From a virus (taxonomy: Duplodnaviria > Caudoviricetes): a DNA stretch of 64,000 nt. A program made the position numbers and the translations under genes. The notes under the pieces were generated by a model, which had not been told where the DNA came from, did no database searches, and was given only the letters and a program-made list of their open reading frames with translations. Positions within the stretch are counted from its first letter, which is position 1, and each line of letters begins with the position of its first letter. Shown piece by piece: positions 2,182 to 64,000 of the stretch. The stretch lies in IMG/VR virus record IMGVR_UViG_3300029913_000001. One strand, 5' to 3'.

Positions 2182-2772
2182 TTATATTGTATAGTGGAAT
2201 TTATTCGGCATATTTTTCTTAATATCAAAATCTAAAAAATTATCTAATTGATTTTTATATTCGTCGTATGATACGGCTATATAATTTCCATGTATACATA
2301 TTTCCATTGATTTTTTAAGAGCAATTTTAATATTTGTGTTATTGTATTTCAACGTCGATACAAACTCTTCGGGCGACAAATTTTCTAACTCCTGCTTCGA
2401 TAATTTAAGTTCTTCATGTAAATCAGCATACCGGCAAAAGGAAAAATCAAAACCATTAATGGGAAAAATAATATAAGGGTTTCCATAATACTCAGTTGAA
2501 AAATAGTCACTTGCGCAAAAAATACTATTTGATCGTAATGCCTTAAACCCGGCGGCACGCAACTTACTATCAATTAACTCTTGCAAATCAAGAGTAGTAT
2601 CCATCGGCTTTCTATTAATAGGTGATTGACCGTTAATTATAGATTTCTCCGATTTAATTCCTCGGAACAAAACCTTATTACATGAACGAAATATTTTTAA
2701 AATATTCGAGCAGTCTGATTCGATTATATAAGAAAATTTACTAAGAGACCCATCAAATTCTAGTAACTTCAT
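2182..2772 (-). CDS. ART-like paralog 1 (start MKLLEF)
   Basis: LFRG...GFKALRSNSIFCAS...YGNPYIIFPINGFDFSF...EICIHGNYIA. Confidence 0.7.
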   Translation of the reverse strand: MKLLEFDGSLSKFSYIIESDCSNILKIFRSCNKVLFRGIKSEKSIINGQSPINRKPMDTTLDLQELIDSKLRAAGFKALRSNSIFCASDYFSTEYYGNPYIIFPINGFDFSFCRYADLHEELKLSKQELENLSPEEFVSTLKYNNTNIKIALKKSMEICIHGNYIAVSYDEYKNQLDNFLDFDIKKNMPNKFHYTI

Positions 2773-2782
2773 TTTACCTTCC

Positions 2783-3640
2783 TTACTCGTCATCGTCTTG
2801 ATCTTCATCACCTTGAAAAATAGGAACTTGCCCTAATAATTCTAATTGATCTGATTTTAACCAGCAACTCGATTCACAGTCATATCCGTACGTAAATTGT
2901 GTTGCTCCATCATAACCAGCATAACTATATGACCCGAAATTATAATGATGAATGCAATCAAAATGCTTCTGTAATTCTTGCCAAGGAAAATCTTTTTTAA
3001 TCAAATCATCCGGAGACCCGTATGATTTTATTCGTTCCCATTCTGCAGGATCTAAATATGCTGAATTACCACGGCCCAATTTTTCAAAAATTTCATAAAT
3101 TATTTTTGCATCATCGGTTGAATCTAATTCATAAACTACAGTGTTCGGCTTAACCTTGTATACATAACCTATTTTACTTTGCCTAGATATTCCCAAATCT
3201 CCCATTCCATAGGCTTGTATAAATTTATTCCATCCGCTTGTCCACTTACCATTTGGTAATTTCTTAGCGGTACTTGTCCATAAAATTGCCCCAACTGGTT
3301 TATTATTTCCGGGTAATACCGGGGAGCCGCCGGCTATAACAGGAGCGCCCTCGTTTAAATTTCTAGACTCCATCGCAGTATCAATATAATTTTTCGCCCA
3401 ATCGGTAAGATTCCCCTCATCGTCGTATGAATATTTTGCCCTATCTTTAAGTAAATAATCTGATCTTTCTTTTTTCGTAGTATATGATACTGATTTTCTG
3501 GGTATAAAAAGCTGAAGTGTTCCGTTAGGAGCAACCGTAGTGCCATGTTTTTTGTAATATTCTAGGGATTCTCTAGCAGCTTCTATTGGATCATATATTG
3601 CTTCAATTTTTTTCTTTTTTGCAAATTCATCTATTCTCAT
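2783..3640 (-). CDS. putative packaged protein with KPxGxxLWTS...YDCES domain (possible second ART-fold family)
   Basis: MRIDEF start; KPVGAILWTSTA, GYVYKV, FDCIH, YGYDCESSCWL. Confidence 0.45.
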   Translation of the reverse strand: MRIDEFAKKKKIEAIYDPIEAARESLEYYKKHGTTVAPNGTLQLFIPRKSVSYTTKKERSDYLLKDRAKYSYDDEGNLTDWAKNYIDTAMESRNLNEGAPVIAGGSPVLPGNNKPVGAILWTSTAKKLPNGKWTSGWNKFIQAYGMGDLGISRQSKIGYVYKVKPNTVVYELDSTDDAKIIYEIFEKLGRGNSAYLDPAEWERIKSYGSPDDLIKKDFPWQELQKHFDCIHHYNFGSYSYAGYDGATQFTYGYDCESSCWLKSDQLELLGQVPIFQGDEDQDDDE

Positions 3641-3806
3641 TAAAATAGCTCCATATCAATGATATATCGCAGGTAAGGCAGCGACATTCTAATAATCTAT
3701 TACTCCATTAAGCGGCTACAACTCGATGATTACCATCAATTAAATAATCTTTTCTGTTCCATTATTTAACAATAATATTGTTCACGTTAAACTCATCAAA
3801 TCTCAT
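3627..3806 (-). pseudogene. decayed ParB/Srx-like gene
   Basis: MRFDEFNVNNIIVK*WNRKDYLIDGNHRVVAA*W...; LIDGNHR motif with two in-frame TAA. Confidence 0.6.
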
Positions 3807-3807
3807 T

Positions 3808-4274
3808 TCATACCTCGCCTGGAATAACTAAAATTTTCGGATATGGCTCAACCCCACATATTTTAGCTGCATTTAACCGAGTGTTCCCTGCCGTTAATAC
3901 TCGTTGACCATAATGTTCTATTACCATCGCCATAGGAATTGCATCGTTATTTTCAAATCCTCTTGCAATTCTAAATGGATCTCTAACATAATCAGAATAA
4001 TACAAACTTATATCTTGCATCATCTGCAAAGAACTACCATTTGTCAATCTAGAAATTGAATTAAAATTATCGTATGACAGACGTTCAATTTTGCCCCGTA
4101 AAACCGCTAGTTTAGCATTTTTCCAGGTAGACCAGCAATTAATATCTGGTAATCCAATTACATCAGGATAATCTCTGTCATTTAAATGTTTGAGATCAAA
4201 TTCTTTCCGCAACTCGGTATCATTAGGCAAACGCCAATTATCATAATGAATTTGTTTAATTTCAAAAGTCTCAT
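3808..4274 (-). CDS. ParB/Srx-like domain protein, apparent 1-nt frameshift at the 5' end
   Basis: LTAGNTRL motif; ATG AGA CTT TT(T) GAA ATT would give MRLFEIKQ, but one T is missing in the run at 4264-4267. Confidence 0.55.
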
Positions 4275-4846
4275 ATAATTACTCCAAGCCAGTCTTGAAA
4301 CCAATATGTTGAAAAAGAATTATAACGAACTGCTGCATATTTTCCATGAAGGTAAACTTCTACTCCGGTATGCATAGCAAATCCTAAATCAGTATCTTTA
4401 AACTCCAAATCTTTAATAAATTTATCTGTTGACATATTTTGAATTTGAGGAACATTATATTCCATTTCTTCTGTTAAATCTCGATATTTGCAATATGTAT
4501 AATCGAATCCGTTAACTGGAAAAATTACATATAAACTTCCGCCATCGGCGTATGCTATAGCATCATTCTCCCGACCCGTGCAAAAAATACTATTTGATCG
4601 TAATGCCTTAAACCCGGCCGCTTGTAACTTGTCGTCGATGGCAAATGATAAAAATCTAGGAGTATCTCTTGGCAAACGATTTACTGGTGACTCGTCAATT
4701 AAATACTTCTCGGAACTCGCTATTCCTCGGTATAAAACTTTTCTATTCTCGCGATACAGCACCAAAATATCAGAACACTTTTCTTTAATGAAAGAAATTA
4801 TTGCATCATTACCGCTTCCCGAGTTATTGATTTCTGTTAATCTCAT
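4271..4846 (-). CDS. ART-like paralog 2
   Basis: MRLTEI start; LYRG...GFKALRSNSIFCTG...YVIFPVNGFDYTY...EVYLHGKYAA. Confidence 0.7.
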   Translation of the reverse strand: MRLTEINNSGSGNDAIISFIKEKCSDILVLYRENRKVLYRGIASSEKYLIDESPVNRLPRDTPRFLSFAIDDKLQAAGFKALRSNSIFCTGRENDAIAYADGGSLYVIFPVNGFDYTYCKYRDLTEEMEYNVPQIQNMSTDKFIKDLEFKDTDLGFAMHTGVEVYLHGKYAAVRYNSFSTYWFQDWLGVII

Positions 4847-5850
4847 ATCTTACCATCGCAGGCCTTAACAATGTTACTTTGACTCTTACGTCCGATCCGA
4901 TAAAATTCATCGGCGGTTAACCATTTTGTTTCACTAACTTCAAAACCAGGTTTATCAAAATCTACGGGATCGGTTACTTCCCCAATAAAAATAGTCATCT
5001 CACTGGTTTCTGTATATCCTGTTATTTCACCTTTCCAACCAATCTTAACGGTGTTAGAAATCAAATTTGAAGGTCTCAACCCGCATTCTTCGTTTGCTTC
5101 TCTAAGCCCTGCTTGCATTTCGTTTTCACCAGCATCAACATGCCCCTTTGCAATCATGGGCTTGTCCCCACCATACGACGGATCGCTGCTAATAACAAAT
5201 AACATTCGAGCTACGCCGTTATTATCTCGGTAATACGGAATAAATCCGGCTTTTTTAATTTGGCTACGATCCCAAGCTTCTTCTAAGTTATTGGACATCG
5301 TACCTTTTAATTCACATTCAGCACAACAAAATTTCTGGTCAGTCGAATGAATATTTTTAAATGTTATTCCACAAACTGGACATTTTTTATCAACTGTTTT
5401 ATCCGCATTTGCAAATTCATTATACGTTAAACTTTCTTGTACAAGATCCCTCTTTTTCATTTTACGCATAAAACCATCTGGGCGATGAAGGAAAGACGAA
5501 ATGAGATCTTCCTTCTTACTTCCAATATTGCCACCCTCAGCAAATGTATTGGCGATTTCTGTAGCCGCATTAACTATATCATTCATTGTTAATTTACGAG
5601 GTTTTTTTCCTCGCAATTCTTCCCACATTAGATACATAAAATCCGAAGGATCATCATATATCTCAGCTAATACTTTTTTATTAGTCATATTAATTCTCGA
5701 ACATCCCATAAATTTTGTACTTAAAATTTTTGATTTCTTGGGCTCAGCACCTAAAATAGGGCCGAGCTCGTCAACTTTATCTTGTGGCCCGAGCCACTGA
5801 GAATTTCTATACGATTTATCAGATCCTAAAATTGTTTTTTTCTTTTTCAC
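4843..5850 (-). CDS. modular protein with zinc-ribbon and C-terminal Nudix hydrolase
   Basis: CPVC..CCAEC; Nudix box KGHVDAGENEMQAGLREANEECG. Confidence 0.8.
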   Translation of the reverse strand: MKKKKTILGSDKSYRNSQWLGPQDKVDELGPILGAEPKKSKILSTKFMGCSRINMTNKKVLAEIYDDPSDFMYLMWEELRGKKPRKLTMNDIVNAATEIANTFAEGGNIGSKKEDLISSFLHRPDGFMRKMKKRDLVQESLTYNEFANADKTVDKKCPVCGITFKNIHSTDQKFCCAECELKGTMSNNLEEAWDRSQIKKAGFIPYYRDNNGVARMLFVISSDPSYGGDKPMIAKGHVDAGENEMQAGLREANEECGLRPSNLISNTVKIGWKGEITGYTETSEMTIFIGEVTDPVDFDKPGFEVSETKWLTADEFYRIGRKSQSNIVKACDGKI

Positions 5851-6788
5851 TATTTCACCAAACTTAAAAAGTCAAATCGTCGTCTTGCGGCTTCGTAGCA
5901 ATCGTTATCTATTGCAATGTAAGCCCCATGCACCCAAACATCTTGCCCTTTACTCAACGCCCATGCTAAATCAGTATCATAAAATTCATTCACCCGCATA
6001 TATTCTTCTACTATATCTGGGTTAGTTGGTTCTAAATTAATCTTTTCGGATATTTTATCAGCCTCTTCTCTAAATTCTTCAAATATAGGATATTTTTGCA
6101 CCAAAATATAAAACTCTTTTAATATTTTATTTATTTTGCCGCGGATCTGATAAATCGTATGGTAATTCTGTATAATAGTACCTATAGTGTAGGCATCTTT
6201 TAAAAATTTTTTTACTTTTATATCTGAACTAGCTATCGTATTGAATTGTTTTTTATAAAATGCAGACTCTAGTATCTGGTCTATTATTAACCTATGCACA
6301 TGCGTTTTTAATTCAACTAAAGGACATATATACTCTCTGGCAGTAGTCCAGGTCCATCTTTTACTATACCCAAAAGTAAATCCGTTAATAGGTAATATTA
6401 GAAAAACTCGGCCCCAGGATCCGGCATCAGAAATGCTTGAAGTGCAAAAAATACTATTACTACGCAATGCAGTAAATCCAGAAGATGACATACAATAATC
6501 TGCATACTTAACGGCCTTCGCGATTTCATCGTTAGCCAAACGCTGTTCGATACTTTTTCGTTTTGCTGGAGGATATCCCATAAAAATGGTTGATCCACCC
6601 GAAACGCCTTTTATCCCTCGATATAGATAATTATCAGATTCTTTTGCATCTTTTAAAAATTCAGAGCAATTTTTAAAAATCCATTTTTCAATTTTGGCTA
6701 GCTCAGTCGCGGCCGAGGTATAGTTAATCGAAGAAAATGTATTCGGCTTCAGCATAGCGGGATCCGGCATTAACTCATTTATCAACAT
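5850..6788 (-). CDS. ART-like paralog 3 (long helical insert, D at the acidic position)
   Basis: MLINEL start; LYRG...GFTALRSNSIFCTS...DVWVHGAYIA. Confidence 0.7.
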   Translation of the reverse strand: MLINELMPDPAMLKPNTFSSINYTSAATELAKIEKWIFKNCSEFLKDAKESDNYLYRGIKGVSGGSTIFMGYPPAKRKSIEQRLANDEIAKAVKYADYCMSSSGFTALRSNSIFCTSSISDAGSWGRVFLILPINGFTFGYSKRWTWTTAREYICPLVELKTHVHRLIIDQILESAFYKKQFNTIASSDIKVKKFLKDAYTIGTIIQNYHTIYQIRGKINKILKEFYILVQKYPIFEEFREEADKISEKINLEPTNPDIVEEYMRVNEFYDTDLAWALSKGQDVWVHGAYIAIDNDCYEAARRRFDFLSLVK

Positions 6789-6816: not shown

Positions 6817-7455
6817 TTAGTCGAATTCTTCATTTTCTGGGTTATACTTAACCGGTAGACCCTTAAAATCATCGGCATTAATTTTGGTTTCTTCATGCTT
6901 AATAGCAACATAAGCGCCGTGAATCCAAACATCATAATGATTAATTAATGGCCATTGCAAATTAGTATTGTATAATTCATTGTAATCTAAAAATTCTTCT
7001 ACATGTTCTGCATTCATCATTCTAGGACGAATATTATATGCGCACGCATTACAATTAGTAAAAGCCTTACTATATCCAAATGTAAATCCATTAATAGGAT
7101 ATATTTCATATACCTCTCCCCAAGATCTCGCCGCCCCGGTAAAAGAATTACAAAAAATACTATTACTTCGTCGAGCCGGCCATCCCGCTAACTTGAGAAG
7201 AAAATCAACCTTCTCCGCGGCCTCTGTTGAATAATATTCAACCGTAGGTCGATTTTCCCTAGAATAGCCAATAAAAGATTCTCGGGTTTCGTTCTTAATA
7301 CCGCGATATAATTTATAATCACCCGCAACAGATAAAAATTCGGAGCAATGCTCAACAATCCAGGATTGCAATTTATCCGATTTATATCTAGCAAGAGATA
7401 ATTGCTGTCCGGGTTTTAGCAAATCAACTCGATTTAAAATTTCATTTAACCGCAT
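6817..7455 (-). CDS. ART-like paralog 4 (start MRLNEIL)
   Basis: LYRG...GWPARRSNSIFCNS...YEIYPINGFTFGY...DVWIHGAYVA. Confidence 0.7.
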   Translation of the reverse strand: MRLNEILNRVDLLKPGQQLSLARYKSDKLQSWIVEHCSEFLSVAGDYKLYRGIKNETRESFIGYSRENRPTVEYYSTEAAEKVDFLLKLAGWPARRSNSIFCNSFTGAARSWGEVYEIYPINGFTFGYSKAFTNCNACAYNIRPRMMNAEHVEEFLDYNELYNTNLQWPLINHYDVWIHGAYVAIKHEETKINADDFKGLPVKYNPENEEFD

Positions 7456-7635: not shown

Positions 7636-8067
7636 TTATCGTTTTATTGTTGAACGAAGGAACCAAGCAAATTTTTCTTGGGAATCGATTAATCCTTGCA
7701 CGAAATTTTGTAACCCTAATTGATCGGGTGCCGATGCGTTAACTTCATTAAGAACTTCTATTAATTTTTCATTATCAATCAACAATTCTTGAATCATTTC
7801 TTGCGCAGGTAAAATACCAGCAAAATCAGATAACACCGATAATCCCATTATTTGTTGAAGACCGAGGGGAGTAAAAATATCAAGTGCTCGCATCTCTTCT
7901 CCAATCCCATCATAGGCAGTATCAACCGATTCATATATGAGTTGTAATAATTTATGCAATTCATAAAATCTCGGGCCAGTAATATTAAAGTGTGCAATAT
8001 GAACCTTAATTGTATAATGTAACACCGTAGCAGTCGCTACCGCCAGCACTTCCTCTAAATTTTTCAT
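7636..8067 (-). CDS. dps: Dps/ferritin-like protein
   Basis: HIAHFNITGPRFYELHKLLQLIYES...DGIGEEMRAL four-helix signature. Confidence 0.85.
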   Translation of the reverse strand: MKNLEEVLAVATATVLHYTIKVHIAHFNITGPRFYELHKLLQLIYESVDTAYDGIGEEMRALDIFTPLGLQQIMGLSVLSDFAGILPAQEMIQELLIDNEKLIEVLNEVNASAPDQLGLQNFVQGLIDSQEKFAWFLRSTIKR

Positions 8068-8442: not shown

Positions 8443-9495
8443 TTATTTCTTTAGACCAAAATATTTACATAATAATTTGTCATAATTAATTTCTAGAATA
8501 TCCTGTCTAATTGCTACATAATGCCCACAAATACATACCTCATTCCTCGTTTTCATTGCTTGATCAAGATTATTAGTACGTATGTTATGATATTTTAAAA
8601 AATTATTTGATTGTTGCTTACGATCACTTGCCTGCATAATAAGTTTGTACGCGGTTTTTATGTTGGCGGATGAAATTGAATTCAACTTATATTTTTTAGC
8701 AATCTTGCAATAGGTATCTAACGTTGTTTTAATTTTTAATAATTCTTTATTCATGCTAGCTAAGACATCGGCTGTGTCGTAGGCATCAAAAAATCTAGCA
8801 TCTGACCAATATTCTTCAATACTTTCTATTATTCTACCGTCCGTTCTTGATAGTTCGGAAAAATCTGGAAAGGCTACGGAAAAACTCCTCAATAAAGTTA
8901 ATAATTTTTTAAATTCTATATTGCTATCAATTATATCATCCACAGATATTTCCCAATCTTCATGCTTACTCCAGGTATATGAAAATCCATCACAAGGAAA
9001 AATACAAAATATATGCCCATAACCATCTGCACCCAGACTGTTACTTATACAAAAAATACTATTTGATCGTATTGCCTTACAACCACCAAGCGATAATAAT
9101 TCATCCACATTTTTTTGAATTTTTTTCGGAGTATCCAATGGACGTCTATTCAATCGTGAAGCACCTATAAAATAAACCGTTTTGGGATCTATATCTCGTG
9201 ATCCGCGATATAATAATGAACTTGATTTTTTCATGTATCTTAAATATTCACTACAATTCTCCTCTATAAATCGGCAAACTTTTAAAAATCGAAGTTTATC
9301 TTTATCCCGCATTGATGCGGGATAAAGATTTAGCAATATTTTCTTGCTAGGCGTTAAATTTGCACTAAATAAGTCGCCTTCTACCGTTGATCCCGGTTTT
9401 AATTTCTTATAATTTTTCATAGGTAATTTACCCACTCTCTTAATCTTTTTCGTGATTTTAATCTCAGTTATCTTATTGTATGAATTAATAATCAT
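8443..9495 (-). CDS. ART-like paralog 5 (long insert); start uncertain (9495 or 9420)
   Basis: LYRG...GCKAIRSNSIFCIS...YGHIFCIFPCDGFSYTW...EVCICGHYVA. Confidence 0.7.
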   Translation of the reverse strand: MIINSYNKITEIKITKKIKRVGKLPMKNYKKLKPGSTVEGDLFSANLTPSKKILLNLYPASMRDKDKLRFLKVCRFIEENCSEYLRYMKKSSSLLYRGSRDIDPKTVYFIGASRLNRRPLDTPKKIQKNVDELLSLGGCKAIRSNSIFCISNSLGADGYGHIFCIFPCDGFSYTWSKHEDWEISVDDIIDSNIEFKKLLTLLRSFSVAFPDFSELSRTDGRIIESIEEYWSDARFFDAYDTADVLASMNKELLKIKTTLDTYCKIAKKYKLNSISSANIKTAYKLIMQASDRKQQSNNFLKYHNIRTNNLDQAMKTRNEVCICGHYVAIRQDILEINYDKLLCKYFGLKK

Positions 9496-11089
9496 TTTTA
9501 GCAATTCTCTCATTTTTATTAACAGATTCATTAAAATCATTTGCTGCTCTCTGCCGATAATCAGTTGGCACATTAATTGTCTTCTTACCATGACAATATA
9601 CGCATTTTTTCTTCTTGCCATTTATTAATGTAAATCCTTTTCCATCGCATCGAAGGCAAGTTAGCTGCGCTTCACTTATCTCTAAACCCGGAGTATCATT
9701 GGAGTTTATTACTTCATTCATCCCAATTTTAATTATTTTATCGAGTAAGGTTTTATTATTTAATGCCACAGCTATATATTTTCCATGAATATAAACCTCA
9801 AACATTTTATTCAATGCATCGGTTAAAAAAAGATTAGTAAAACCATATGTTTGTGTGAATTCCCTGGCCGGCATATTAATCGAATCATTAACAAATGAAT
9901 TATCACTATAAGTATTGTCTTCATTAAACAAAACGTAGTGTAATCCAAATTTTCCTGTTAAGTCAAGTGCTCTTCTACACCAGGTATATGAAAATCCATT
10001 TAAAGGAAAAATAACATATACTTTTCCGTGATTAGTCTTATCATGATCATTACTATAATTACTGGCAATCAACTTATCCGACGTACAAAAAATACTATTT
10101 GATCGTAATGCAGTAAATCCAACTTTGGATAATGCCGAATCCAATAATTCCGATGCTTTCTCATTTGAATCTACCGGCATACGATTTTTAACTTCTTTCC
10201 CAAATAAAATAGGTTCGACCGAATGAATACCACGATATAAAAAATCATGATCTTTATAAATTTGCAAAATATCTGTGCAATTAGTTTTAATAAATCTAAC
10301 TATTCTATCTTCTTGATTAGGCGTCATACTTTCTTTTAAACTTTTAAAATATTCGACCTCGCCTTCATGTTTTGCGTCAGCTCTATGACTATCAAAAGTT
10401 CCGAGATTCTTACCTTTATGGGAAAGCAATCGATATTTTCCATTCTTTAATTTAACAATATGTTCGTCTAATTTTGGCGGGGATAATAATACTCGATCGA
10501 GTATTACTTTTATTTTATTAACTTTCGTAGATTTAGGGTATAACTCTTGAATGATTTGATATCTGTCTGTTTCAGAGCCGTTTGCATACATTTCACGAAT
10601 CTTACTAGCAGAGCTAATATTCTGGCCAAGTATTTTATATTGTATTGCTGGAACAACTACATAATAGGCATGCTTATCAAATGTCTGCAATGGAGTAGTA
10701 GATGAAACTGGATATGGCTGCATATACGAAAGTTCCCCATTTTTCTTAATAGGAGAACCAAGGCGATCTCGATCTTTCGATGATAAACCAAAAATTAAAA
10801 CGGTATTTGCTGAATCATATTTTCCAGTTATTTCGGTAGATTTATACGGACTTACTACTTCAACAAATTTATCTTCAGGAACTCCTGCTTGCGCAGCTAA
10901 AAATCTCTTCTCTGCAAATGAAAATGGTCGCTCAGACATTTTATTTGAACTAGCCACATATAAATCTGCCTTTGGAAATTTATTTTTAAGATAATTATAT
11001 ACTGCGGTATGCCCAGCCGACCATGGGTGAAATCCACCGGGAAATATGCAGAGCTCGTGATATCTAGTTTCAAATTCAGAAAGAAGCAT
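9485..11089 (-). CDS. fusion: HxGH-class nucleotidyltransferase + small domain + ART-like paralog 6 + CxxCxGxG zinc module
   Basis: FPGGFHPWSAGH and ISSASKIRE; LYRG...GFTALRSNSIFCTS...EVYIHGKYIA; CLRCDGKG...CVYCHGK. Confidence 0.75.
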   Translation of the reverse strand: MLLSEFETRYHELCIFPGGFHPWSAGHTAVYNYLKNKFPKADLYVASSNKMSERPFSFAEKRFLAAQAGVPEDKFVEVVSPYKSTEITGKYDSANTVLIFGLSSKDRDRLGSPIKKNGELSYMQPYPVSSTTPLQTFDKHAYYVVVPAIQYKILGQNISSASKIREMYANGSETDRYQIIQELYPKSTKVNKIKVILDRVLLSPPKLDEHIVKLKNGKYRLLSHKGKNLGTFDSHRADAKHEGEVEYFKSLKESMTPNQEDRIVRFIKTNCTDILQIYKDHDFLYRGIHSVEPILFGKEVKNRMPVDSNEKASELLDSALSKVGFTALRSNSIFCTSDKLIASNYSNDHDKTNHGKVYVIFPLNGFSYTWCRRALDLTGKFGLHYVLFNEDNTYSDNSFVNDSINMPAREFTQTYGFTNLFLTDALNKMFEVYIHGKYIAVALNNKTLLDKIIKIGMNEVINSNDTPGLEISEAQLTCLRCDGKGFTLINGKKKKCVYCHGKKTINVPTDYRQRAANDFNESVNKNERIAKNDY

Positions 11090-11099: not shown

Positions 11100-12068
11100 T
11101 CAGTTATATTTATGAAAGAATGGCCCAAGAATAAGATCCCCTTCCTGTGAATACAATTCTTTATTAATTTGTAAAATCCATTCAGGCGCAATGTTCTTTC
11201 TTCTATAATTTTTTAAAAATAAATGTGTTTCTATCGGAATATCACCGTAAACCTGCAATACACCTAGCATTCGATGTCTACCTTCATGATCTATAACTTT
11301 AGCTGCACTTCTAAAATTTAAGTCTTCCCAGTTACTCGGAATTTGGATACTTAAAAATGGGCTTCCAATAGAATTACCATTTTTAATATATTCTCGCATA
11401 TTATCTACCGAATCAGAAAAATGTGAGAAAGACGGTGTCAATGACAAAAATGAGCTCGGCTTCATTGCTACCCGCAACCCAAAATAATCTATATCTTCAT
11501 TATTGGGAGTTGCACCGGCACCTCTCTTATTATCTATTTTAACTTCCTCAGATATATTCTTTGAAAATATTTTTGATAACTTTTTAAATGTATTTTTAAC
11601 GCCCGAATCTTCGTATAATATTCCGATTCCACCCGCAACATTCCAGGATTTAATATTATCATCCAAATCGTCGATTAATATATTACTATTCCCAACGTAT
11701 TCATCTTTATTAAAAGCAAAAATAGCGGGAATACCCCCTAAACCATTCTTTTTTAACCATAACTTTTTCCCTGCTATACATTCTTCTGTATTAGGAGGGC
11801 CCACGGGACGGCTTAAAAAAATATATGGAATTTTTCTATTGTCGAACCAAGCTAATAATTTTTTTCCATTTGGCATCCATTCTAAATTTGCAAAGAATTT
11901 CTTAATGTCGCCGTTATTAATAACATTGCTCCAATACTTATTGTTCCATCCATAGGATTCAAATTCCTCTAGCGTAAGATGATTAAAATCAGCCGCGCCC
12001 TTAGCACAATCTGCCAGACACCCATCTAGATCTATAAATACTTTGCGTTCGATTTCAGAAATTCTCAT
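11100..12068 (-). CDS. HAD-family 5'(3')-deoxyribonucleotidase fused to a ParB-like C-terminal domain
   Basis: DLDGCLAD, GKKLWL, ILIDD; C-terminal DHEGRHR. Confidence 0.8.
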   Translation of the reverse strand: MRISEIERKVFIDLDGCLADCAKGAADFNHLTLEEFESYGWNNKYWSNVINNGDIKKFFANLEWMPNGKKLLAWFDNRKIPYIFLSRPVGPPNTEECIAGKKLWLKKNGLGGIPAIFAFNKDEYVGNSNILIDDLDDNIKSWNVAGGIGILYEDSGVKNTFKKLSKIFSKNISEEVKIDNKRGAGATPNNEDIDYFGLRVAMKPSSFLSLTPSFSHFSDSVDNMREYIKNGNSIGSPFLSIQIPSNWEDLNFRSAAKVIDHEGRHRMLGVLQVYGDIPIETHLFLKNYRRKNIAPEWILQINKELYSQEGDLILGPFFHKYN

Positions 12069-20155: not shown

Positions 20156-20184
20156 ATTATAATTGATTTTATGCCGAATGTCAA
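20156..20184 (-). promoter_or_regulatory. sigma70-type promoter
   Basis: TTGACA-17-TATAAT, ATG 6 nt downstream. Confidence 0.8.
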
Positions 20185-20744
20185 GCTATTAATTCCTTGA
20201 TAAGTGCATTGAATTTTTCTTCCGCCAAGAACATACATTTTCCAGTAATTAGTATTTCATTACCTGATGTAGTTGCCTTTAACAAATTATCCTGCCTAAA
20301 TGAATATAACGAAGTAAACTCGTTGGGATCCATGTCTATAATTTTAGGTGCGTATTTTGAATATTTGCCCTGATCATAATTCGTATATAAATCTTGCATC
20401 GTTTCTGACCATGTGAACTCGAAGTTATTGAATGGGAAGGTTATGAAAATTTTTCCATATCTATTTGCCACAGATCTTTTATTTGTGCAGAAAATACTAT
20501 TCGATCGTAGAGCCTTAAATCCTGCTGCTGATAATTTTTCATCAAATATTTTTTGTTGTTTAATAGAAAATGACATTGGGTGCCTATCGGCAACCTTAGA
20601 AATAATAAACATATTTTCTAATCGGTGTGATCCGTGATAAAGAAATTCACCCGAAGATTTGTAGAAATCAACAATTTGAGAGCAAGATTTGCTGATAAAT
20701 TTTTTAATATTATTGAGGTCTGGAGTAATTTCAAATTCTCTCAT
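20181..20744 (-). CDS. ART-like paralog 7 (LYHG variant)
   Basis: MREFEI start; LYHG...GFKALRSNSIFCTN...YGKIFITFPFNNFEFTW...EILITGK. Confidence 0.7.
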   Translation of the reverse strand: MREFEITPDLNNIKKFISKSCSQIVDFYKSSGEFLYHGSHRLENMFIISKVADRHPMSFSIKQQKIFDEKLSAAGFKALRSNSIFCTNKRSVANRYGKIFITFPFNNFEFTWSETMQDLYTNYDQGKYSKYAPKIIDMDPNEFTSLYSFRQDNLLKATTSGNEILITGKCMFLAEEKFNALIKELIA

Positions 20745-54467: not shown

Positions 54468-54474
54468 TTTTCGG

Positions 54475-54503
54475 TTGACAAGTGATCTGATTTTTGATAC
54501 ACT
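54475..54503 (+). promoter_or_regulatory. sigma70-type early promoter
   Basis: TTGACA-17-TACACT then TATTTCAGTGAGG. Confidence 0.75.
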
Positions 54504-54522
54504 TATTTCAGTGAGGGAATGG

Positions 54523-54846: not shown

Positions 54847-54861
54847 CTCAGAAAGGAACAT

Positions 54862-55083
54862 ATGACAGATCCGATTATTGCAGAAGGACCACATTCAATC
54901 ACCACATTTATTACCTCGAACGTTAGGCACCTGGAAATTGTTCGATCGGGAGATTGTGAAAATGTTATTGTATTCACGGACAATAAGTGGCTGAAAATCA
55001 CTGCGTTCGTTAATAGTGCAAACGAACCGCAAATTCGAATCGCAGAAATCCAGTTTGATTCGACGCCGAAAAAGAAGGGGTAA
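54862..55083 (+). CDS. hypothetical protein
   Basis: 73 aa, SD AAGGA. Confidence 0.55.
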   Translation: MTDPIIAEGPHSITTFITSNVRHLEIVRSGDCENVIVFTDNKWLKITAFVNSANEPQIRIAEIQFDSTPKKKG

Positions 55084-55084
55084 T

Positions 55085-55516
55085 ATGAGAGCACACATTG
55101 GTATTCTGGCACTTTCGCTAGCGGCTATGTCACTTGCAGCGCAAGAACTGCCATCGGTCCCCACACCAAATCTTGATCGATCTGAAAAGATTTTACTTGG
55201 GGCTGACATTACTGCTCGAGGGCTAGATACATTTTCTACTCGATACATGCTAACGGGAAACGATCACGACCGTGAAGATTTTTTGCCCAGCAAGATTACA
55301 AATCATACTGCGGCACTGATAGGATTTGAAGGCGGAATGGTCGGCGTTGATTATTTTGCCGCACGATATCTAAATCGGCATGGGCATCGTAGGCTCGCTA
55401 GAGTGTGGTTAGCTACGGATGCCTCAATTGTTACACCGTTTGCTACTCATAATTTATTTTTGCAACGTAATCGTCCGAAGCAGCCGATTATCCCACATTT
55501 ATTTCCTATTGGATAA
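55085..55516 (+). CDS. signal-peptide-bearing envelope protein
   Basis: MRAHIGILALSLAAMSLAAQELPSVPTP...LDTFSTR...REDFLP. Confidence 0.7.
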   Translation: MRAHIGILALSLAAMSLAAQELPSVPTPNLDRSEKILLGADITARGLDTFSTRYMLTGNDHDREDFLPSKITNHTAALIGFEGGMVGVDYFAARYLNRHGHRRLARVWLATDASIVTPFATHNLFLQRNRPKQPIIPHLFPIG

Positions 55517-55600
55517 AAAAGTTTTAATTTTGGAATGAGGAAAATATGACCTGACGATTTGAAAATTAAAATAGAAAATTGATAATATTGAACAACCAGT

Positions 55601-55638
55601 TAACGAAAAGCCCACCTAGATAGGTGGGCTTTTCGTTA
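55601..55638. terminator. bidirectional terminator between convergent genes
   Basis: TAACGAAAAGCCCACCTA-GA-TAGGTGGGCTTTTCGTTA. Confidence 0.9.
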
Positions 55639-57138
55639 GTGAATTTTAAAACATATTCGTCCGTTTGGCCTTGCACTCGCTGAATACGCTTTTTGGGACT
55701 GAAATTGGACCTTTCCCTGAAATACTGGTGGCCAGATAACATTGAAATCTGTGAATGCTGCCCCGGTTCCGGTCTTACTTATTTTGGTCATTACCTGAAT
55801 CATATTTGACCTAGCTAAGATAGCTTTGAAAAATTCGGTAACTAAATCTTCTTGCTCATTAAGGTGAGCAGTTACTAAATGAGCAACTACCGTAAGAAGA
55901 TGCAACCCGACAGTATAATTAGGACTTGTGGTAACTGGGTTATAAATTTTATTGGCCAACAATTTTTGCAGCTTTTTAGTTACGTCGGTTTTAACAAGAT
56001 TGGGATCATCAATGGCCGCCTTAATTTTAATCAAATCAGCGGCGTCAATAATTCCATACATAACACCTAATTCAAGTGGACCATCAATTGCGGATTTATT
56101 CTTTAAAAGATTAATTACATTAAATAGATATTTGTATTTTTTCTTTTTAACAAGATCTTTAAATCTTTCAGGATTTTTTTCAATTACCGAGGATAAACTT
56201 GTAATGCTAGCAGCGGCGCCGCCTTTAGAATTTTTTGAACTAATACCTAATTTTGTATCAGCGTCAATGTTTAAATAACTATCTACCAACTGTTCGTTGC
56301 CTGCCATCGGAAAAGAGCAGGTTTTAATCTTTGCCCAGCTTGATCCCATTGGCTTCAATAATTGTTCCTCAACTTGTTGGTATGCGCCGGATATAAAATG
56401 ACCGGTCATTAATGCAATCGGAGCCCCGGTTTCACCTAAATCAACTTCATATGAACTAATATACTGGGCTGCATTTGCAATAGGACTTGAAAACCCGACT
56501 TGAATATTCTTAAGAAGTTTGGGCACCTGCTCAATTACTTCTAAAGGAAGTTCGGTATGGGTTATAATATTTTCGTCAATTTGTTCCAATAGATCGTCAA
56601 TTGTAAATCTCGCATCGACCCCAACAACGGTTAATGGTTTAAGATTTAATTCAGATTTTTGTTGAGCATCATTTGATAATGCAAACCCGGTATCTCGAGC
56701 GAAATTGCTATTGCTCCAATAAAATGGGATTGCACTCGGACTCTTGGATACAAATAGTTTTACAAACGCAACTTTTTGATTACGGCTATTTGTCCAGAGA
56801 GTAATCATTGCCGCTCTTCCCGCAGTATTCGTAATATGCCAATTGGCGGGTAAAATTTTTGCGGTGATTTTATATTGTTCCAATGCATCCATTACTTTTT
56901 GCTGCCCGGTCTTTAATAATTTTTTCTGCTCGCCTAAAGGCAGCAATCTTGCTTTAGCCGGAAGGCTGGAAACATCATCATTTGCATAAAACAATCCAGT
57001 CTCGGGAAGAAGATAATTTCCGATTGCCGTTAAAACTTCTCCTTCCTTATTTGAAACCGTAATAGTTTTGCCCGCTGCGGCTTCCTGGGTTCTTACAAAA
57101 ATTCCTCGACTCGATTCAAACAATTCAAAGTATCGCAT
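55636..57138 (-). CDS. putative packaged protein with PD-(D/E)XK-like nuclease motif
   Basis: MRYFELFE start; E(T)GAP...LVDSYL...GISSK; TAAATA 5 nt upstream. Confidence 0.55.
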   Translation of the reverse strand: MRYFELFESSRGIFVRTQEAAAGKTITVSNKEGEVLTAIGNYLLPETGLFYANDDVSSLPAKARLLPLGEQKKLLKTGQQKVMDALEQYKITAKILPANWHITNTAGRAAMITLWTNSRNQKVAFVKLFVSKSPSAIPFYWSNSNFARDTGFALSNDAQQKSELNLKPLTVVGVDARFTIDDLLEQIDENIITHTELPLEVIEQVPKLLKNIQVGFSSPIANAAQYISSYEVDLGETGAPIALMTGHFISGAYQQVEEQLLKPMGSSWAKIKTCSFPMAGNEQLVDSYLNIDADTKLGISSKNSKGGAAASITSLSSVIEKNPERFKDLVKKKKYKYLFNVINLLKNKSAIDGPLELGVMYGIIDAADLIKIKAAIDDPNLVKTDVTKKLQKLLANKIYNPVTTSPNYTVGLHLLTVVAHLVTAHLNEQEDLVTEFFKAILARSNMIQVMTKISKTGTGAAFTDFNVIWPPVFQGKVQFQSQKAYSASARPNGRICFKIH

Positions 57139-57150: not shown

Positions 57151-57738
57151 CTAGAATATACCTAATTTTTTCAAAACCCGTGCGGCGCCATCTGTATATA
57201 CTTTCAACGCATAATAGTCACCATGTATTAATATTTCATTCCCCGAGTTAACCGCATTGACAAAATTTTTATTCTTTAATCCAAAAATAGAAATTGTTGC
57301 CGACGCATCAGCTCTGCTAGCAAGTAAAGGACCATGCGGGGTATTAATCCAGGACATATATTTTCGTTTCTTACTCCATGTAAACGAGAATCCATCACAA
57401 GGAAAAATTATATACAATTCTCCAAAATTTTTAGCTTGCATATAATCGGCAATGCAAAACATACTATTACTTCGTAATGCAGTAAACCCCATTATTCTTA
57501 GGCATGAATCAAGATAGAGTTGTTGCTCTTTTGACATACCTCTGGGCGTTCTATGTTCCGGCGAGTGGCTGGTAAATGAAAATTCGGTGTGGTTATAAAT
57601 TCCGGAAAACAAAAGATTCTGACATACATTAAATGACTTGATAGCCGTAGAACAATTGTCTTGAATATTATTTGCTACCATTTCTGCCATCTCCAATCGT
57701 TCCAGAGGAGTTGAGTTCTCAATTTCGCATATTTTCAT
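57151..57738 (-). CDS. ART-like paralog 8 (LFSG variant)
   Basis: MKICEI start; GFTALRSNSMFC...FGELYIIFPCDGFSFTW...EILIHGDYYA. Confidence 0.7.
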   Translation of the reverse strand: MKICEIENSTPLERLEMAEMVANNIQDNCSTAIKSFNVCQNLLFSGIYNHTEFSFTSHSPEHRTPRGMSKEQQLYLDSCLRIMGFTALRSNSMFCIADYMQAKNFGELYIIFPCDGFSFTWSKKRKYMSWINTPHGPLLASRADASATISIFGLKNKNFVNAVNSGNEILIHGDYYALKVYTDGAARVLKKLGIF

Positions 57739-58445
57739 ATCGATCTCAAATCAACTCCGACTTCTGCCAATACCGCAGGATAAGCAAATCGAAGTTTTTC
57801 CTCTTTTTTAGGATCATTTTTCAATGCAGCCATTATACTTTCAACTGACTCAATATCTTTTCTCGTTGCTTTAGCATTCAATAATTTTTTCGCAATGAAA
57901 TCTGGATTATTGCCATTTTTAAGAAGTTTCTTTGTGTCAAGAGTAGTTAATCCTTCCTGCTCTTGATATCGTAAATTCATCGACTTTGCAAGATTATATA
58001 ATAGCTTATTCTTTACTAGATTTTTATATTTACTATCAGGATTCGCACGAATTGCCCATCTCGCAAATTCAATGTCGGATACAAACATTAAATCTACCTG
58101 AACGAAACCATTTTTCGGGTTGCCAGAGATCGGGCAACGCATCGTTACACTACTGCCTAATTTTTTTGCAGGCATAACGGCCGTCATATTATGAGCATCT
58201 GTCCATTGTCTGATAGTAACTAATAATTCATCTTTAGTTATTTCCGACCTATCAACTGCTAGATCGATATCTCCACTCGTTTCTTTAATACCCGTTGATC
58301 CGAGCATGTTATTCAAAAGCGAGAGACCGGTAATACCCTCTAGAAAAGCGACCGTAGGTTTTACTTGGGCTCTAGCAATACGAATTACAGCTAAGTCGCC
58401 AACAAAGGCATTACCACCCTCAAATAATAATTCTGCAATTTTCAT
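57735..58445 (-). CDS. Pol-beta superfamily nucleotidyltransferase
   Basis: MKIAELLFEGG start; LGSTG...SGDIDLAVD...VQVDLMF. Confidence 0.75.
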   Translation of the reverse strand: MKIAELLFEGGNAFVGDLAVIRIARAQVKPTVAFLEGITGLSLLNNMLGSTGIKETSGDIDLAVDRSEITKDELLVTIRQWTDAHNMTAVMPAKKLGSSVTMRCPISGNPKNGFVQVDLMFVSDIEFARWAIRANPDSKYKNLVKNKLLYNLAKSMNLRYQEQEGLTTLDTKKLLKNGNNPDFIAKKLLNAKATRKDIESVESIMAALKNDPKKEEKLRFAYPAVLAEVGVDLRSI

Positions 58446-58478
58446 ATAAGTATTTATTTCAATGTGCTATAATATTAC

Positions 58479-60630: not shown

Positions 60631-60676
60631 GTTTTTATTATACATTATATTTCTAATAAAAGTCAATAAATATAAT

Positions 60677-61324
60677 ATGCGACTAAATAAATTAATGAAA
60701 CCATTTAAAGATTTTGAAAAAGAGAATCCGGATGACTTATGGGATGAAACGCATGGCGGGCAAAAAGTATACAACTCTCCTACTAGAGAAATAATGAATT
60801 TTATTGATAAGCACTGTAAAAAAGCTGTTACAGCCATGCAAGATACGCAAACATTTTTATATCGTCGAATAGGGTATGATGTTGGCGTACCCAATGTATT
60901 TCATGGTATAACGCCGACAGCGCGTGAATCATACAGCGCGGAATATGATCAACCGCTGTTAGATAAAATATTACAACAGTGTGGATTTTCTTCATTACGC
61001 TCAAATAGCATCTGTTGCACGGGCAGCAATACAGATTTATACGGATTCGGTAAATTATATCATATTTTTCCCGTTAAGGGTTTTGATTTTACATGGAGTC
61101 CAAAAATTGAAGATATTGGAGCAAATAACGAATTGGCAAGTTCGTTGGCACGCGAAAAGCTAGTTAGTTCTCCAAAAAAATTTGTTAAATACTGGCAATT
61201 CTCAAAAAATAATTTTGCAATGGCTCTGCACAGTAAAAATGAAATTACTATTCATGGTCAATATATCGCATTGGCCGATAAGTATCATACCGAACTAGTA
61301 AAACGATTTGGTATAGGAATATAA
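60677..61324 (+). CDS. ART-like paralog 9 (start MRLNKL)
   Basis: LYRR...GFSSLRSNSICCTG...FGKLYHIFPVKGFDFTW...EITIHGQYIA. Confidence 0.7.
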   Translation: MRLNKLMKPFKDFEKENPDDLWDETHGGQKVYNSPTREIMNFIDKHCKKAVTAMQDTQTFLYRRIGYDVGVPNVFHGITPTARESYSAEYDQPLLDKILQQCGFSSLRSNSICCTGSNTDLYGFGKLYHIFPVKGFDFTWSPKIEDIGANNELASSLAREKLVSSPKKFVKYWQFSKNNFAMALHSKNEITIHGQYIALADKYHTELVKRFGIGI

Positions 61325-61998
61325 TGAAAATATTCGAATTATTGAAACCAATTGAAGACGAGGATAACCTCGATGTTTGGACCAACGGGTTTGGTGGTTT
61401 TAAAAATTACGAGCAAGAAAAATTGGAACATGTTTTCGAATTTATATCTAAACATTGTAGTCAGGCCGTAAAAGATATGCAATCAAAGAATAAATTTTTA
61501 TATCGCGGAATTAACGCGCCCTCGCCGACTATTTTTCTGGGGGCGACCCCGGTTACGCGGGAACCGTATGGTATGGGAAAAGATCAACAATGGATATTAG
61601 ATAAAATATTTAAGCTAACAGGATTTATTTCATTAAGAAGAAATTCAATATGTGCAACTACCAAACCCGATGAATATGTAAATTTTGGAAAAATATATTA
61701 TATTTTTCCGGTGAATGGATTTAATTTTACCTGGAGCAAAATTATAAAAGATGTAGGTGGTAATAATGAAATTTATAATGAGCTGAAAAAATTATATAAT
61801 TCCTATATAGGAATTAATCGATTAGACCAGGATGCCGCAAATAAATTTATTAAAAAGTGGGACTTTCGAAATAATAATTTCGATCAAGCTCTTTGGGTAG
61901 GTAATGAAATTACAATTAATGGGCAATATGTTGCTATTAAATCATCAGATTATCCATATATCTATGCAGTTAAAGAATATTTTGGGATAACAGGCTAG
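61324..61998 (+). CDS. ART-like paralog 10
   Basis: MKIFEL start; LYRG...SLRRNSICAT...FGKIYYIFPVNGFNFTW...EITINGQYVA. Confidence 0.7.
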   Translation: MKIFELLKPIEDEDNLDVWTNGFGGFKNYEQEKLEHVFEFISKHCSQAVKDMQSKNKFLYRGINAPSPTIFLGATPVTREPYGMGKDQQWILDKIFKLTGFISLRRNSICATTKPDEYVNFGKIYYIFPVNGFNFTWSKIIKDVGGNNEIYNELKKLYNSYIGINRLDQDAANKFIKKWDFRNNNFDQALWVGNEITINGQYVAIKSSDYPYIYAVKEYFGITG

Positions 61999-62003
61999 GT
62001 ACA

Positions 62004-62672
62004 ATGAAAATATACGAAATAATAAATCCGAGTGACATTAATACCAGTACAGTAGATGACTGGGCCGATAACTACGGTGGCATTAAAAATTACAACTCAG
62101 AAAAATTAGAAAAAGTTCTCGATTTTATAACAACACATTGTGATGTACTACCTATTATGCAGAAGAATAATACCTTTTTATATCGGGGTATTGGAGGTAT
62201 CAGTAACCGGCCTGTTATTTTCCACGGGCTTACACCCATAAGTAGGTTGTCCATATGGGCTAGCCCATATGGACAACAACTCTTGGATCATATATTTGAA
62301 TTGAATAACTTTCCCGCCCTACGAAAAAATTCTATTTGTACCACGTCGAAAGTGGAAATGTCATTTGGAGCAACTTATTTAATTTTTCCGTTGACAGGTT
62401 TTAATTTTACCTGGAGTGCAAGAATTAAGGATATCGGAAGTAATTCCAATCTATATTGGGAACTAAAAGATTTTAATGATTCGAGAAGAATAGATGCTAT
62501 CACCCGTGATGAAGCTAAAAAATTTGTTGATAAATGGGAATTTTTCGGCAATAAGCATTTTGATATGGCTCTTAGAATTGGAAACGAAATAATAATCAAT
62601 GGCCAATACATCGCTATTAGTGGGTCGTTGTATGGCGAGGCAGCTAGAAAATATTTTGGCATAACAGACTAG
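62004..62672 (+). CDS. ART-like paralog 11
   Basis: MKIYEI start; LYRG...ALRKNSICTTS...FGATYLIFPLTGFNFTW...EIIINGQYIA. Confidence 0.7.
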   Translation: MKIYEIINPSDINTSTVDDWADNYGGIKNYNSEKLEKVLDFITTHCDVLPIMQKNNTFLYRGIGGISNRPVIFHGLTPISRLSIWASPYGQQLLDHIFELNNFPALRKNSICTTSKVEMSFGATYLIFPLTGFNFTWSARIKDIGSNSNLYWELKDFNDSRRIDAITRDEAKKFVDKWEFFGNKHFDMALRIGNEIIINGQYIAISGSLYGEAARKYFGITD

Positions 62673-62685
62673 ACTAAATATTAAT

Positions 62686-63375
62686 ATGAAAATATCTGAA
62701 GCGATTTTAAATGAGGGCGTCCACGATAATTTTAACTTTAAGGCTATATTTTTAGTCGGGTCGCCCGGTAGTGGAAAAACTACCATTGAAAAAGAATTTG
62801 GTCTCGAGACCCGAGGATTCAAACAATTAGATATAGATCGAACCAAACTACATTTAAAAACATTATCAGATTATGAGACAGCCGGTAAAACTACCGAAAA
62901 ACGTTTTAATCTATGGGCCAATGATTATTTAGGATTAATTATTAATACTACCGGAAGAAATGCAGACGTAATAATTCGATTGAACAAAAAATTAAAAGAA
63001 TGTTATTATCAAACATTCATGATATTTGTAGACGTTGACGAATCTATTGCAAGAGCGAGAATAGAATCAAGATATCAAACGGCACTAGATCGTGCAGATA
63101 AACGCAAAGTAGACCTTGATTATTTCCAGGAAGCATATTCTTCTGTTAAACAGAATATAGCATTATATGAATTATTATTTGGGCGATATTTTTCGTTAGT
63201 ACAGAATAATGAAAATATGATTGATCAAGATCTAGATATTGCCCGCAGAAAATTAAATAATTTCCTGCTGTCTCCAAATAGTCCAGAAGCGCAATCTATT
63301 ATGAAGGGTGTTAAAACAAAAGCTATTGCGGGAATAGGTAGAAAATATCCAAAACTTTCTGGTAGGCGGCCCTAA
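62686..63375 (+). CDS. P-loop kinase (zeta-toxin/AAA_33-like)
   Basis: MKISEAILNEG start; GSPGSGKT, LIINTTG, MIFVDV...ARAR. Confidence 0.75.
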   Translation: MKISEAILNEGVHDNFNFKAIFLVGSPGSGKTTIEKEFGLETRGFKQLDIDRTKLHLKTLSDYETAGKTTEKRFNLWANDYLGLIINTTGRNADVIIRLNKKLKECYYQTFMIFVDVDESIARARIESRYQTALDRADKRKVDLDYFQEAYSSVKQNIALYELLFGRYFSLVQNNENMIDQDLDIARRKLNNFLLSPNSPEAQSIMKGVKTKAIAGIGRKYPKLSGRRP

Positions 63376-64000
63376 TTAATATTAAGAAAATATTGACCCA
63401 ATGCTTCATTAAATTTATTTGACTCTACTGCTACGTACGAACCGTGAATCATAACTTCGTGATCTAATTTAATCGCGGTATCTAGCCGAGTTTTCAATAA
63501 TTTATTCAGTTTGACAAATTGTTGGGATGCAATTTTTGGATTAAGTGAATTTGATATTAGTCTATTAATTTTTGCTCTTAATTCGGGTGTAAAATAATGA
63601 CGAACTTCTTCAACAGTTGCCGATAATTTTGCAGCAATTTGCATAAACTTTCTTAACTGGGCAAGATCATAAAAATAGCCATCTCCGCTACCGCCCCACG
63701 TAAAAGGCTTAACATATATTTCCACAGCATTTTTTATAGCAATATTTGCAAGGGTTGCCTTGTGTGTATCGTCTCGGGTACTATAATAGATGTCGTTAAA
63801 AATATTTCGCAGGGCACTATAATTCGGGGATAAGAAGCGCGGTTGAATAACCCAATCAAGATGCTCTAGGCTCCAGGTATACTCAAATCCATTAATAGGA
63901 AAAATAATATATGGATCGCCATATGTCAACGCATTCTGCTCTTCTCCAGTGCAAAAAATACTATTTGATCGTAGTGCTTTAAATCCTTGCAATGTTAAAT
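63372..64000 (-). CDS. ART-like paralog 12, 5' end beyond the window
   Basis: GFKALRSNSIFCTG...YGDPYIIFPINGFEYTW...long insert...EVMIHGSYVA. Confidence 0.7.
   Translation of the reverse strand, partial: LTLQGFKALRSNSIFCTGEEQNALTYGDPYIIFPINGFEYTWSLEHLDWVIQPRFLSPNYSALRNIFNDIYYSTRDDTHKATLANIAIKNAVEIYVKPFTWGGSGDGYFYDLAQLRKFMQIAAKLSATVEEVRHYFTPELRAKINRLISNSLNPKIASQQFVKLNKLLKTRLDTAIKLDHEVMIHGSYVAVESNKFNEALGQYFLNIN

Follow-up and report, generated by a model that had tools for sequence, protein, structure and literature searches.

The 64,000-nucleotide stretch of DNA analysed here (the window; IMG/VR virus record IMGVR_UViG_3300029913_000001, Caudoviricetes), part of a jumbo-phage genome, carries twelve genes of a single protein family whose predicted structure resembles that of ADP-ribosyltransferases (ARTs) and most members of which begin with the same short N-terminal sequence, the leader. 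The window represents the reverse strand of positions 36618-100617 in a 105,056-base IMG/VR viral contig of 29% CheckV completeness; it is AT-rich (GC content about 0.34) and phage-like, contains giant open reading frames (ORFs), and departs from the IMG/VR record by three substitutions and one indel close to its end. The twelve copies are located as follows; residue numbers throughout are those of the 4271-4846 protein.

2182..2772, minus strand: family copy of 196 amino acids (aa), leader MKLLEF; ORF runs upstream to a GTG at 2811; match to PHROG 11975 at E 2e-25
4271..4846, minus strand: family copy of 191 aa, leader MRLTEI; reference for residue numbering and modelled protein; 59%-identical orthologs in four IMG/VR contigs
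5850..6788, minus strand: family copy of 312 aa, leader MLINEL; long helical insert, D at the acidic position
6817..7455, minus strand: family copy of 212 aa from MRLNEI (ORF extends to 7599); D at the acidic position
8443..about 9423, minus strand: family copy with long insert; start uncertain (ORF to 9621, internal leader-like KITEI)
9485..11089, minus strand: 534-aa fusion, leader MLLSEF; family domain at about 9704-10390
20181..20744, minus strand: family copy of 187 aa, near-variant leader MREFEI; H for R on strand 1 (LYHG)
57151..57738, minus strand: family copy of 195 aa, leader MKICEI; S for R on strand 1 (LFSG)
60677..61324, plus strand: family copy of 215 aa, starting MRLNKL; first of a tandem trio; ATAAATA 4 nucleotides (nt) before the ATG
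61324..61998, plus strand: family copy of 224 aa, leader MKIFEL
62004..62672, plus strand: family copy of 222 aa, leader MKIYEI
63372..64000, minus strand: family copy with long insert, truncated by the window end; remainder in the contig

All twelve genes align over their full length, and a profile built from them recovered every copy from the contig (E 1e-44 to 1e-82 per copy) as well as a thirteenth located just beyond the window at C1:35375-35944 (contig coordinates). R83, N85, S86, G103, P110, F114 and G168 are invariant in all twelve. A preliminary description of this DNA had reported twelve motif-sharing genes, each of which is present where it was placed, and the motifs are real; the variants that it singled out (at the first position, LYHG for 20181 and LFSG for 57151; D in place of E in the 5850 and 6817 copies) are likewise correct, as is the helical insert of more than 100 aa that precedes the acidic residue in the 5850, 8443 and 63372 copies. 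Its statement that most members begin M[RK][ILF]xE[IFL] holds for a relaxed form, M-x-h-x-E-h (h, hydrophobic), which is found on eight of the twelve copies, but the strict form occurs on only six. Some details are to be amended. The 60677 copy has K where E is expected in the leader, and the N-terminus of the 63372 copy falls outside the window and is devoid of leader in the contig. The member at 9485 corresponds to about residues 234-462, the C-terminal domain, of the 534-aa fusion, in which an HxGH-motif nucleotidyltransferase-like N-terminal half is followed by an L-K-E-S junction, the family domain and a short CxxC tail. The motif of the N-terminal half of this fusion reads GxFxPxHxGH, and its tail holds two CxxC pairs; resemblance to HxGH adenylyltransferases is weak (PPAT, E 0.12), and we do not claim a link to NAD+ synthesis. 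The indel (window 63871-64000 versus G000:C1:36618-36747) leaves the last family copy intact in the window and frameshifted in the record. The same proteins are also found on a 292,778-base contig, and a longer assembly of the phage therefore exists.

The family very probably has an ART fold. AlphaFold2 models of the 4271-4846 protein reached predicted local distance difference test (pLDDT) scores of 84.9 with the 12-sequence alignment and 93.4 with a 118-sequence alignment, the latter with a predicted template modelling score of 0.88; both contain a split beta-sheet ART core, and the structural matches of both are almost exclusively ART-superfamily chains. Among 48,161 chains the top 42 consecutive rows came from this one superfamily, a result reproduced with the two models, and a structure search of the ESM Atlas retrieved DUF2441 (template modelling (TM) scores 0.50 and 0.53) along with ART-PolyVal, Arr-ms, DUF3990 and Scabin/pertussis-like clusters. 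DUF2441, DUF3990, Arr-ms and DarT are members of the Pfam ART clan (PMC7955679). Foldseek searches of PDB and the Swiss-Prot models yielded nothing significant, the best PDB match being BC2332 at E 0.09, and their top rows were ART-fold chains (BC2332, OspC). BC2332 belongs to the SCOP ADP-ribosylation superfamily (family d.166.1.6; PMC3000352) and was matched to diphtheria-toxin-type catalytic sites by structure-based function prediction (PMC3024214). RES-domain structures were absent from the top structural matches, and the DUF2441 hidden Markov model (HMM; PF10386) found no match in the contig at E<=1. The ART-like fold put forward in the preliminary description is supported by the model searches and by strand-1 and strand-5 motifs that fit the ART triad. 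That description had recognised no named family, and the family is indeed unnamed: PHROG 11975 is of unknown function, there is no Pfam match, and membership of any named ART family is unsupported.

The catalytic triad of ARTs sits on strands 1, 2 and 5 and takes the form H-H-h, H-Y-[EDQ] or R-S-E (PMC7955679). In the strand order of the model, L-[YF]-[RH]-G lies on the first core strand. Of 163 domains, 87% have R and 10% have H at position 40, next to a G41 conserved in 98%; such an alternation of R and H at one position beside an invariant Gly is the pattern seen between clades of the ART superfamily. The segment entering strand 2 reads A-L-R83-S-N85-S86-I-F88-C, with N85-S86 and F88 entering or lying on the strand; in the same domains R57 and R83 are each conserved in 99%, N85 in 98%, S86 in 99% and F88 in 86%. 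Position 163 (E in 94%, D in 4%) begins the fifth core strand and is followed by a conserved G and Y. We propose that the active site of these proteins is made up of [YF]-[R/H]40-G on strand 1, R83-x-N85-S86-I-F88 leading into strand 2 and E/D163, with which strand 5 begins. Strands 4 and 5 are separated by a helical subdomain of 45 to more than 100 aa, the least conserved part of the protein and the one expanded in three copies, which in the models sits where ARTs have their target-recognition loop. We regard NAD+-dependent catalysis by the family as somewhat more likely than not. A 39-bp stretch encoding G-F-K-A-L-R-S-N-S-I-F-C is nucleotide-identical at 2515-2553 and 4580-4618, in two paralogs that share about 40% protein identity, and its core AAT AGT ATT TTT TG recurs in nine of the twelve copies, synonymous sites included; gene conversion or a recombination anchor is a possible explanation.

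The leader, M-[KR]-[IL]-x-E-[ILF] on most copies, is far more frequent than chance would predict. When ORFs are read from their first ATG, seven of 75 begin with the strict form (0.016 expected) and ten with the relaxed form (0.3 expected). It is a short N-terminal tag common to unrelated proteins of one phage, being found on the HxGH N-terminus of the 534-aa fusion and on four of the five non-family neighbours listed here.

62686..63375, plus strand: Zeta-toxin-like P-loop kinase, leader MKISEA
57735..58445, minus strand: Pol-beta-type nucleotidyltransferase-like fold, leader MKIAEL; no Pfam match; Atlas TM 0.75-0.90 to NTP_transf_2/DUF6267 clusters
11100..12068, minus strand: HAD 5'(3')-deoxyribonucleotidase-like N-terminal domain, leader MRISEI; first minus-strand array gene; ATAAATA 5 nt before the ATG
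2783..3640, minus strand: 285-aa protein, leader MRIDEF; no Pfam match; weak leads to ART-PolyVal/AcrIF11-like clusters
4843..5850, minus strand: NUDIX hydrolase domain protein inside the main array, without leader

E5 of the leader is conserved in at least 90% of 118 short homologs, and the leader itself is carried by about 60% of the best 150 cluster representatives and by nearly all family ORFs at 37 IMG/VR loci from other viral contigs; it is conserved as a peptide, with varying codons, across many contigs and unrelated folds. The prohead protease of phage T4, gp21, cuts after I/L-x-E. The hydrophobic-x-E end of the leader (I/L-x-E, residues 3-5) has what we take to be the form of this site. 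In T4, a sequence of roughly ten N-terminal residues directs the internal proteins to the prohead core, as it does foreign proteins that have been joined to it, and its processing depends on residues 8 and 10 of the tag (PMC9026906, PMC9958956); the packaged ART Alt is trimmed by gp21 as well (PMC9026906). By analogy, we read the leader as a putative T4-type capsid-targeting and prohead-protease signal that would be cut after hydrophobic-x-E. The family copies of Agrobacterium phage Atu_ph07 share a leader of their own, M-[RK]-W-x-Q-L-x-E, that also terminates in hydrophobic-x-E, and similar motifs lie at domain junctions, as L-K-E-S in the fusion of the window and as [LV]-x-E-S in a 2,645-aa five-domain relative. 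The latter, a metagenomic protein, has five tandem family domains with [LV]-x-E-S linkers between them; it may be a polyprotein from which a prohead protease releases the individual domains. A gp21-type protease (Peptidase_S77) is encoded by Atu_ph07, by a 91%-complete related contig and by one further related contig.

Evidence for the presence of such proteins in virions comes from Atu_ph07, twelve of whose thirteen family domains lie in a tandem array at 41.1-50.3 kb annotated as AUZ94865-AUZ94875. With the primase/helicase set as gp70, as in the published numbering (PMC6102473), these eleven products are gp53-gp63, and molecular weights computed from the DNA equal those of the published table to two decimals in 11 of 11 cases. 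All eleven were detected in virions by electrospray ionization tandem mass spectrometry (PMC6102473, Table S5), each by 3-31 unique peptides that covered 12-47% of the protein, a level similar to that of bona fide structural proteins in the same table. Proteomics of Ralstonia phage RsoM2USA was limited to the ten strongest gel bands and is uninformative on its homolog, ORF255. The preliminary description had called the proteins apparently capsid-packaged. Virion presence is upheld by the Atu_ph07 homologs and by the portability of the leader, and we consider it probable that the family is virion cargo in the present phage as well; location in the capsid interior, however, is something that we infer, as are injection and the diversity of targets, and our confidence that the proteins are injected into the host is evenly balanced.

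The family is large and essentially viral. A profile search of 1.84 billion proteins matched 6,739 cluster representatives (50% identity) at E<=1e-3 and 3,995 at E<=1e-10; these are named 'hypothetical' wherever the source gives a name, and almost none has a Pfam domain. Among the PHROGs the copies fall in family 11975, with a weaker match to phrog_12810, in which the domain is fused to a Zeta-toxin-like kinase, and Atlas clusters of the family are 94-100% viral. The only cultured carriers found by tblastn against phages were Atu_ph07, RsoM2USA and Salicola phage SCTP-2, and a megablast of 12 kb against cultured phages gave no match. Pfam searches found neither an ART nor any other domain in eight copies (E<=1) and nothing informative in ten multi-domain relatives except one GNAT fusion, and a literature search by accession, family name and topic retrieved no description of the family. 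Multi-copy arrays are usual: a paralog count, which the preliminary description had proposed, gave 13 in the contig, 13 domains in Atu_ph07 and 4-19 matches in other large viral contigs, some of which are split pieces of one gene. Some relatives contain several domains, either as many as five copies in tandem or fusions to GNAT and kinase domains. With the exception of the tandem trio at 60677-62672, most paralogs of the window are 46-59% identical to a homolog on another contig as opposed to 29-42% to their closest paralog in the genome; since most are thus closer to homologs elsewhere than to each other, the expansion is old and the copies have been kept separately, which is what would be expected if they do different things. 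The Zeta-toxin-like kinase is recurrently tied to the family, being adjacent and leader-tagged in the window, whereas phrog_12810 and the Atu_ph07 virion protein gp53 (L015:18157-20493) combine it with the family domain in one fusion protein.

Tail-fibre-like and baseplate/virion structural genes, including ORFs of 1,659 and 2,440 aa, are immediately upstream of the 20181 copy. The motif ATAAATA precedes the ATG by 4-5 nt in the leader-bearing genes that open the arrays (starts 12068, 58445 and 60677; variant at 62686) and in the gene for the 2,440-aa virion protein, at the following sites.

12075-12080, 58452-58457 and 37239-37244, minus strand: ATAAATA
60666-60672 and about 62671-62677, plus strand: ATAAATA (once CTAAATA)

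No space is left for a Shine-Dalgarno sequence. As a motif observation, this is suggestive of a shared late-type promoter giving rise to nearly leaderless mRNAs. The canonical T4 late promoter TATAAATA was not found upstream of family genes, the shorter ATAAATA being present by the ATG only, and at array-first genes. Other features of the region include a Dps/ferritin-like gene (7636-8067, minus strand) and a gene for a large ATP-dependent Lon-like protease (PHROG 4871; 14176-16437, minus strand), which like the NUDIX gene lie in or beside the cargo array. GC content rises to 0.42-0.48 across 36000-56000, from about 0.34 elsewhere; this region holds a 1,316-aa ORF (37644-41594, no PHROG match) and a gene for a CCA-adding enzyme (48406-49725). 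At 45010-45435 (minus strand) ARAGORN calls a tmRNA gene of the permuted, two-piece type, whose tag peptide has 26 residues.

We lean, with moderate confidence, towards the view that these proteins form a very large, unnamed and phage-specific ART-fold family of leader-tagged virion cargo, enzymes delivered together with the phage DNA. The proteins would be made late in infection and loaded into the prohead by way of the leader, which the prohead protease would trim after hydrophobic-x-E; the trimmed proteins would then be delivered to the host with the DNA, where the different paralogs would act on different host molecules in NAD+-dependent reactions that serve takeover or anti-defence. The folds closest to theirs are those of minimal ARTs (BC2332/DUF2441, Arr, DarT, KptA), and for this reason nucleic acids or small molecules are as plausible as targets as proteins are. 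In a more specific version, which we offer as a speculative and rather unlikely one, a clade of mostly uncultured T4-related jumbo phages would load their capsids with at least a dozen different nucleotide-directed enzymes by means of a 5-8-residue code at the N-terminus (M-K/R-h-x-E, with cleavage following the E), the dominant cargo being a hitherto unrecognised family of minimal ARTs that ADP-ribosylate nucleic acids or small molecules, as do DarT, KptA and Arr, and not proteins, with each paralog tuned by its variable helical subdomain to its own host or defence target.

A number of observations weigh against the view that these are packaged transferases, and rival explanations have to be considered in their light. 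Every fold-similarity score is modest; neither a Pfam ART model, nor a PDB sequence profile (two family profiles were searched and gave chance matches only), nor the DUF2441 HMM matches the family. The S-N-S precedes strand 2 in place of standing at its end as in the classical STS motif, and the spatial clustering of R40, S86/F88 and E163 and the NAD+ pocket are putative, as is cleavage of the leader, whose sequence fits a prohead-protease site. Chance resemblance to a common alpha/beta arrangement, with an unrelated fold and chemistry behind it, is nevertheless very improbable in view of the uninterrupted run of ART-superfamily chains obtained with two independent models, the return of the same families by independent Atlas searches, and the fall of the strand-1 aromatic-R/H-G and the strand-5 E at superfamily positions. 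It is also conceivable, and in our view unlikely, that the proteins are packaged and ART-folded without being transferases, that is, pseudoenzymes or ligand binders acting as internal head proteins (restriction or defence inhibitors such as T4 IPI*, NAD+ or ADP-ribose sponges, or DNA-associated core proteins). The internal proteins of T4, in the account that PMC9026906 gives of them, are diverse, fast-evolving and non-enzymatic cargo with the same kind of leader; the absence of an ART sequence-profile match, as well as the copy number and divergence of the family, would suit binders engaged in an arms race; and the loss of the strand-1 R/H in the 57151 copy and the G41R substitution in the 60677 copy mean that some copies may be inactive. 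On the other hand, R57, R83, N85, S86 and E163 hardly vary even though the sequences, in their thousands, have diverged, and residue 40 is either R or H in the manner of ARTs, a pattern that one meets more typically in catalytic sites than on binding surfaces.

Alternatively, the proteins of this phage may be enzymes of ART fold that work inside the infected cell and are not carried in the capsid; the N-terminus that they share would then provide a context for translation initiation, act as a degron, or be a tag for regulation or assembly that has nothing to do with the head. ModA and ModB of T4 are ARTs that are not known to be packaged. The virion proteomics concerns the homologs of Atu_ph07 and not this phage, no prohead protease (gp21) or gp23 was found in the 105-kb fragment, a gap that its being a 29% complete fragment may explain, and array-first genes are nearly without a 5' untranslated leader, so that their first codons could affect translation. 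That the leader is kept as a peptide on unrelated folds and in many contigs while its codons vary, ends in hydrophobic-x-E like the gp21 site, has an analogous counterpart on Atu_ph07 homologs that were all found in virions, and has its hydrophobic-x-E-S form repeated at domain junctions makes this explanation less likely still than that of packaged binders. The Atu_ph07 virions were PEG-purified (polyethylene glycol), and probable contaminants (RecA-like, single-stranded DNA-binding and ribonucleotide reductase proteins) appear at 1-3 peptides in the same data set; mass spectrometry, moreover, attests to presence in the virion and is silent on position in the head. The authors of that study read the gene cluster CDS 31-76, which includes gp53-63, as probable novel structural parts of a 'hairy' or whiskered virion (PMC6102473), and the proteins could accordingly be external parts that are not ejected, such as the head or tail 'hair' or whisker decorations of Atu_ph07-like phages. 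Small globular enzyme-like folds with conserved polar pockets, fused in places to kinases, GNAT domains and nucleotidyltransferases, are unlike fibre subunits, and the leader resembles the core-targeting tag of T4; we deem an external location quite improbable, if less so than a chance likeness to ARTs.

Several known systems bear comparison with the delivered ART-fold cargo that we favour. The likeness to BC2332-like/DUF2441 proteins (PDB 2AUA; SCOP d.166.1.6, Pfam ART clan) is structural only, with 6-7% identity and no PF10386 profile match; unlike the present family, DUF2441 proteins, which are mainly bacterial and of unknown function, have no leader, virion link or paralog arrays. The rifampin ADP-ribosyltransferase Arr (PDB 9IAF; Pfam Arr-ms) confers resistance on bacteria by acting on a small molecule and has no detected sequence similarity to the family, which possesses in addition an N-terminal two-helix element with a conserved Cys and the variable helical subdomain. 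T4 Alt is, like the proteins described here, a phage ART-fold protein found in the virion; its terminal propeptides are cut by the prohead protease and it is delivered with the DNA for host takeover (PMC9026906). Alt differs in being single-copy, with roughly 40 molecules per head, whereas the present genomes hold ten or more diverged copies of about 22-35 kDa. At about 75 kDa, Alt is also much larger than the family copies. No sequence match was found between the family and Alt, and the 28 significant matches in a viral structure library were all uncharacterised or bore an unrelated label (e.g. Zeta toxin domain), none being named Alt or Mod; the family is Alt-like in concept and not a relative of Alt by any test run. 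With T4 IPI-III it shares a short portable N-terminal tag on otherwise unrelated, fast-evolving proteins (PMC9026906, PMC9958956); the leader found here, however, is shorter, of other sequence (M-K/R-I/L-x-E-h) and putative in its role, and its cargo is enzyme-like as opposed to small and basic. The ART-PolyVal polyvalent proteins resemble it in that they too are cargo delivered by phages, related to conflict and made up of several enzymes, ART and GNAT domains among them (PMC5512222, PMC7824862), whereas the family consists mostly of single-domain genes in arrays and not of one giant polypeptide, and the likeness is weak and structural (TM 0.38). A jumbo-phage survey mentions ARTs in such phages in general terms only (PMC7824862).

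If the reading that we favour is correct, thousands of 'hypothetical' proteins of environmental jumbo phages could be assigned to one defined family of ART fold, with an active site open to testing, and the leader would represent a simple and portable capsid-loading tag outside the T4 model that could reveal which proteins a giant phage delivers with its genome. With ten or more diverged and individually conserved copies per genome, these phages would possess one of the largest known arsenals of virion-delivered enzymes, a rich hunting ground for novel targets of ADP-ribosylation or novel anti-defence functions. Atu_ph07, which is cultured and whose virion proteome is already published, provides a direct experimental entry point.

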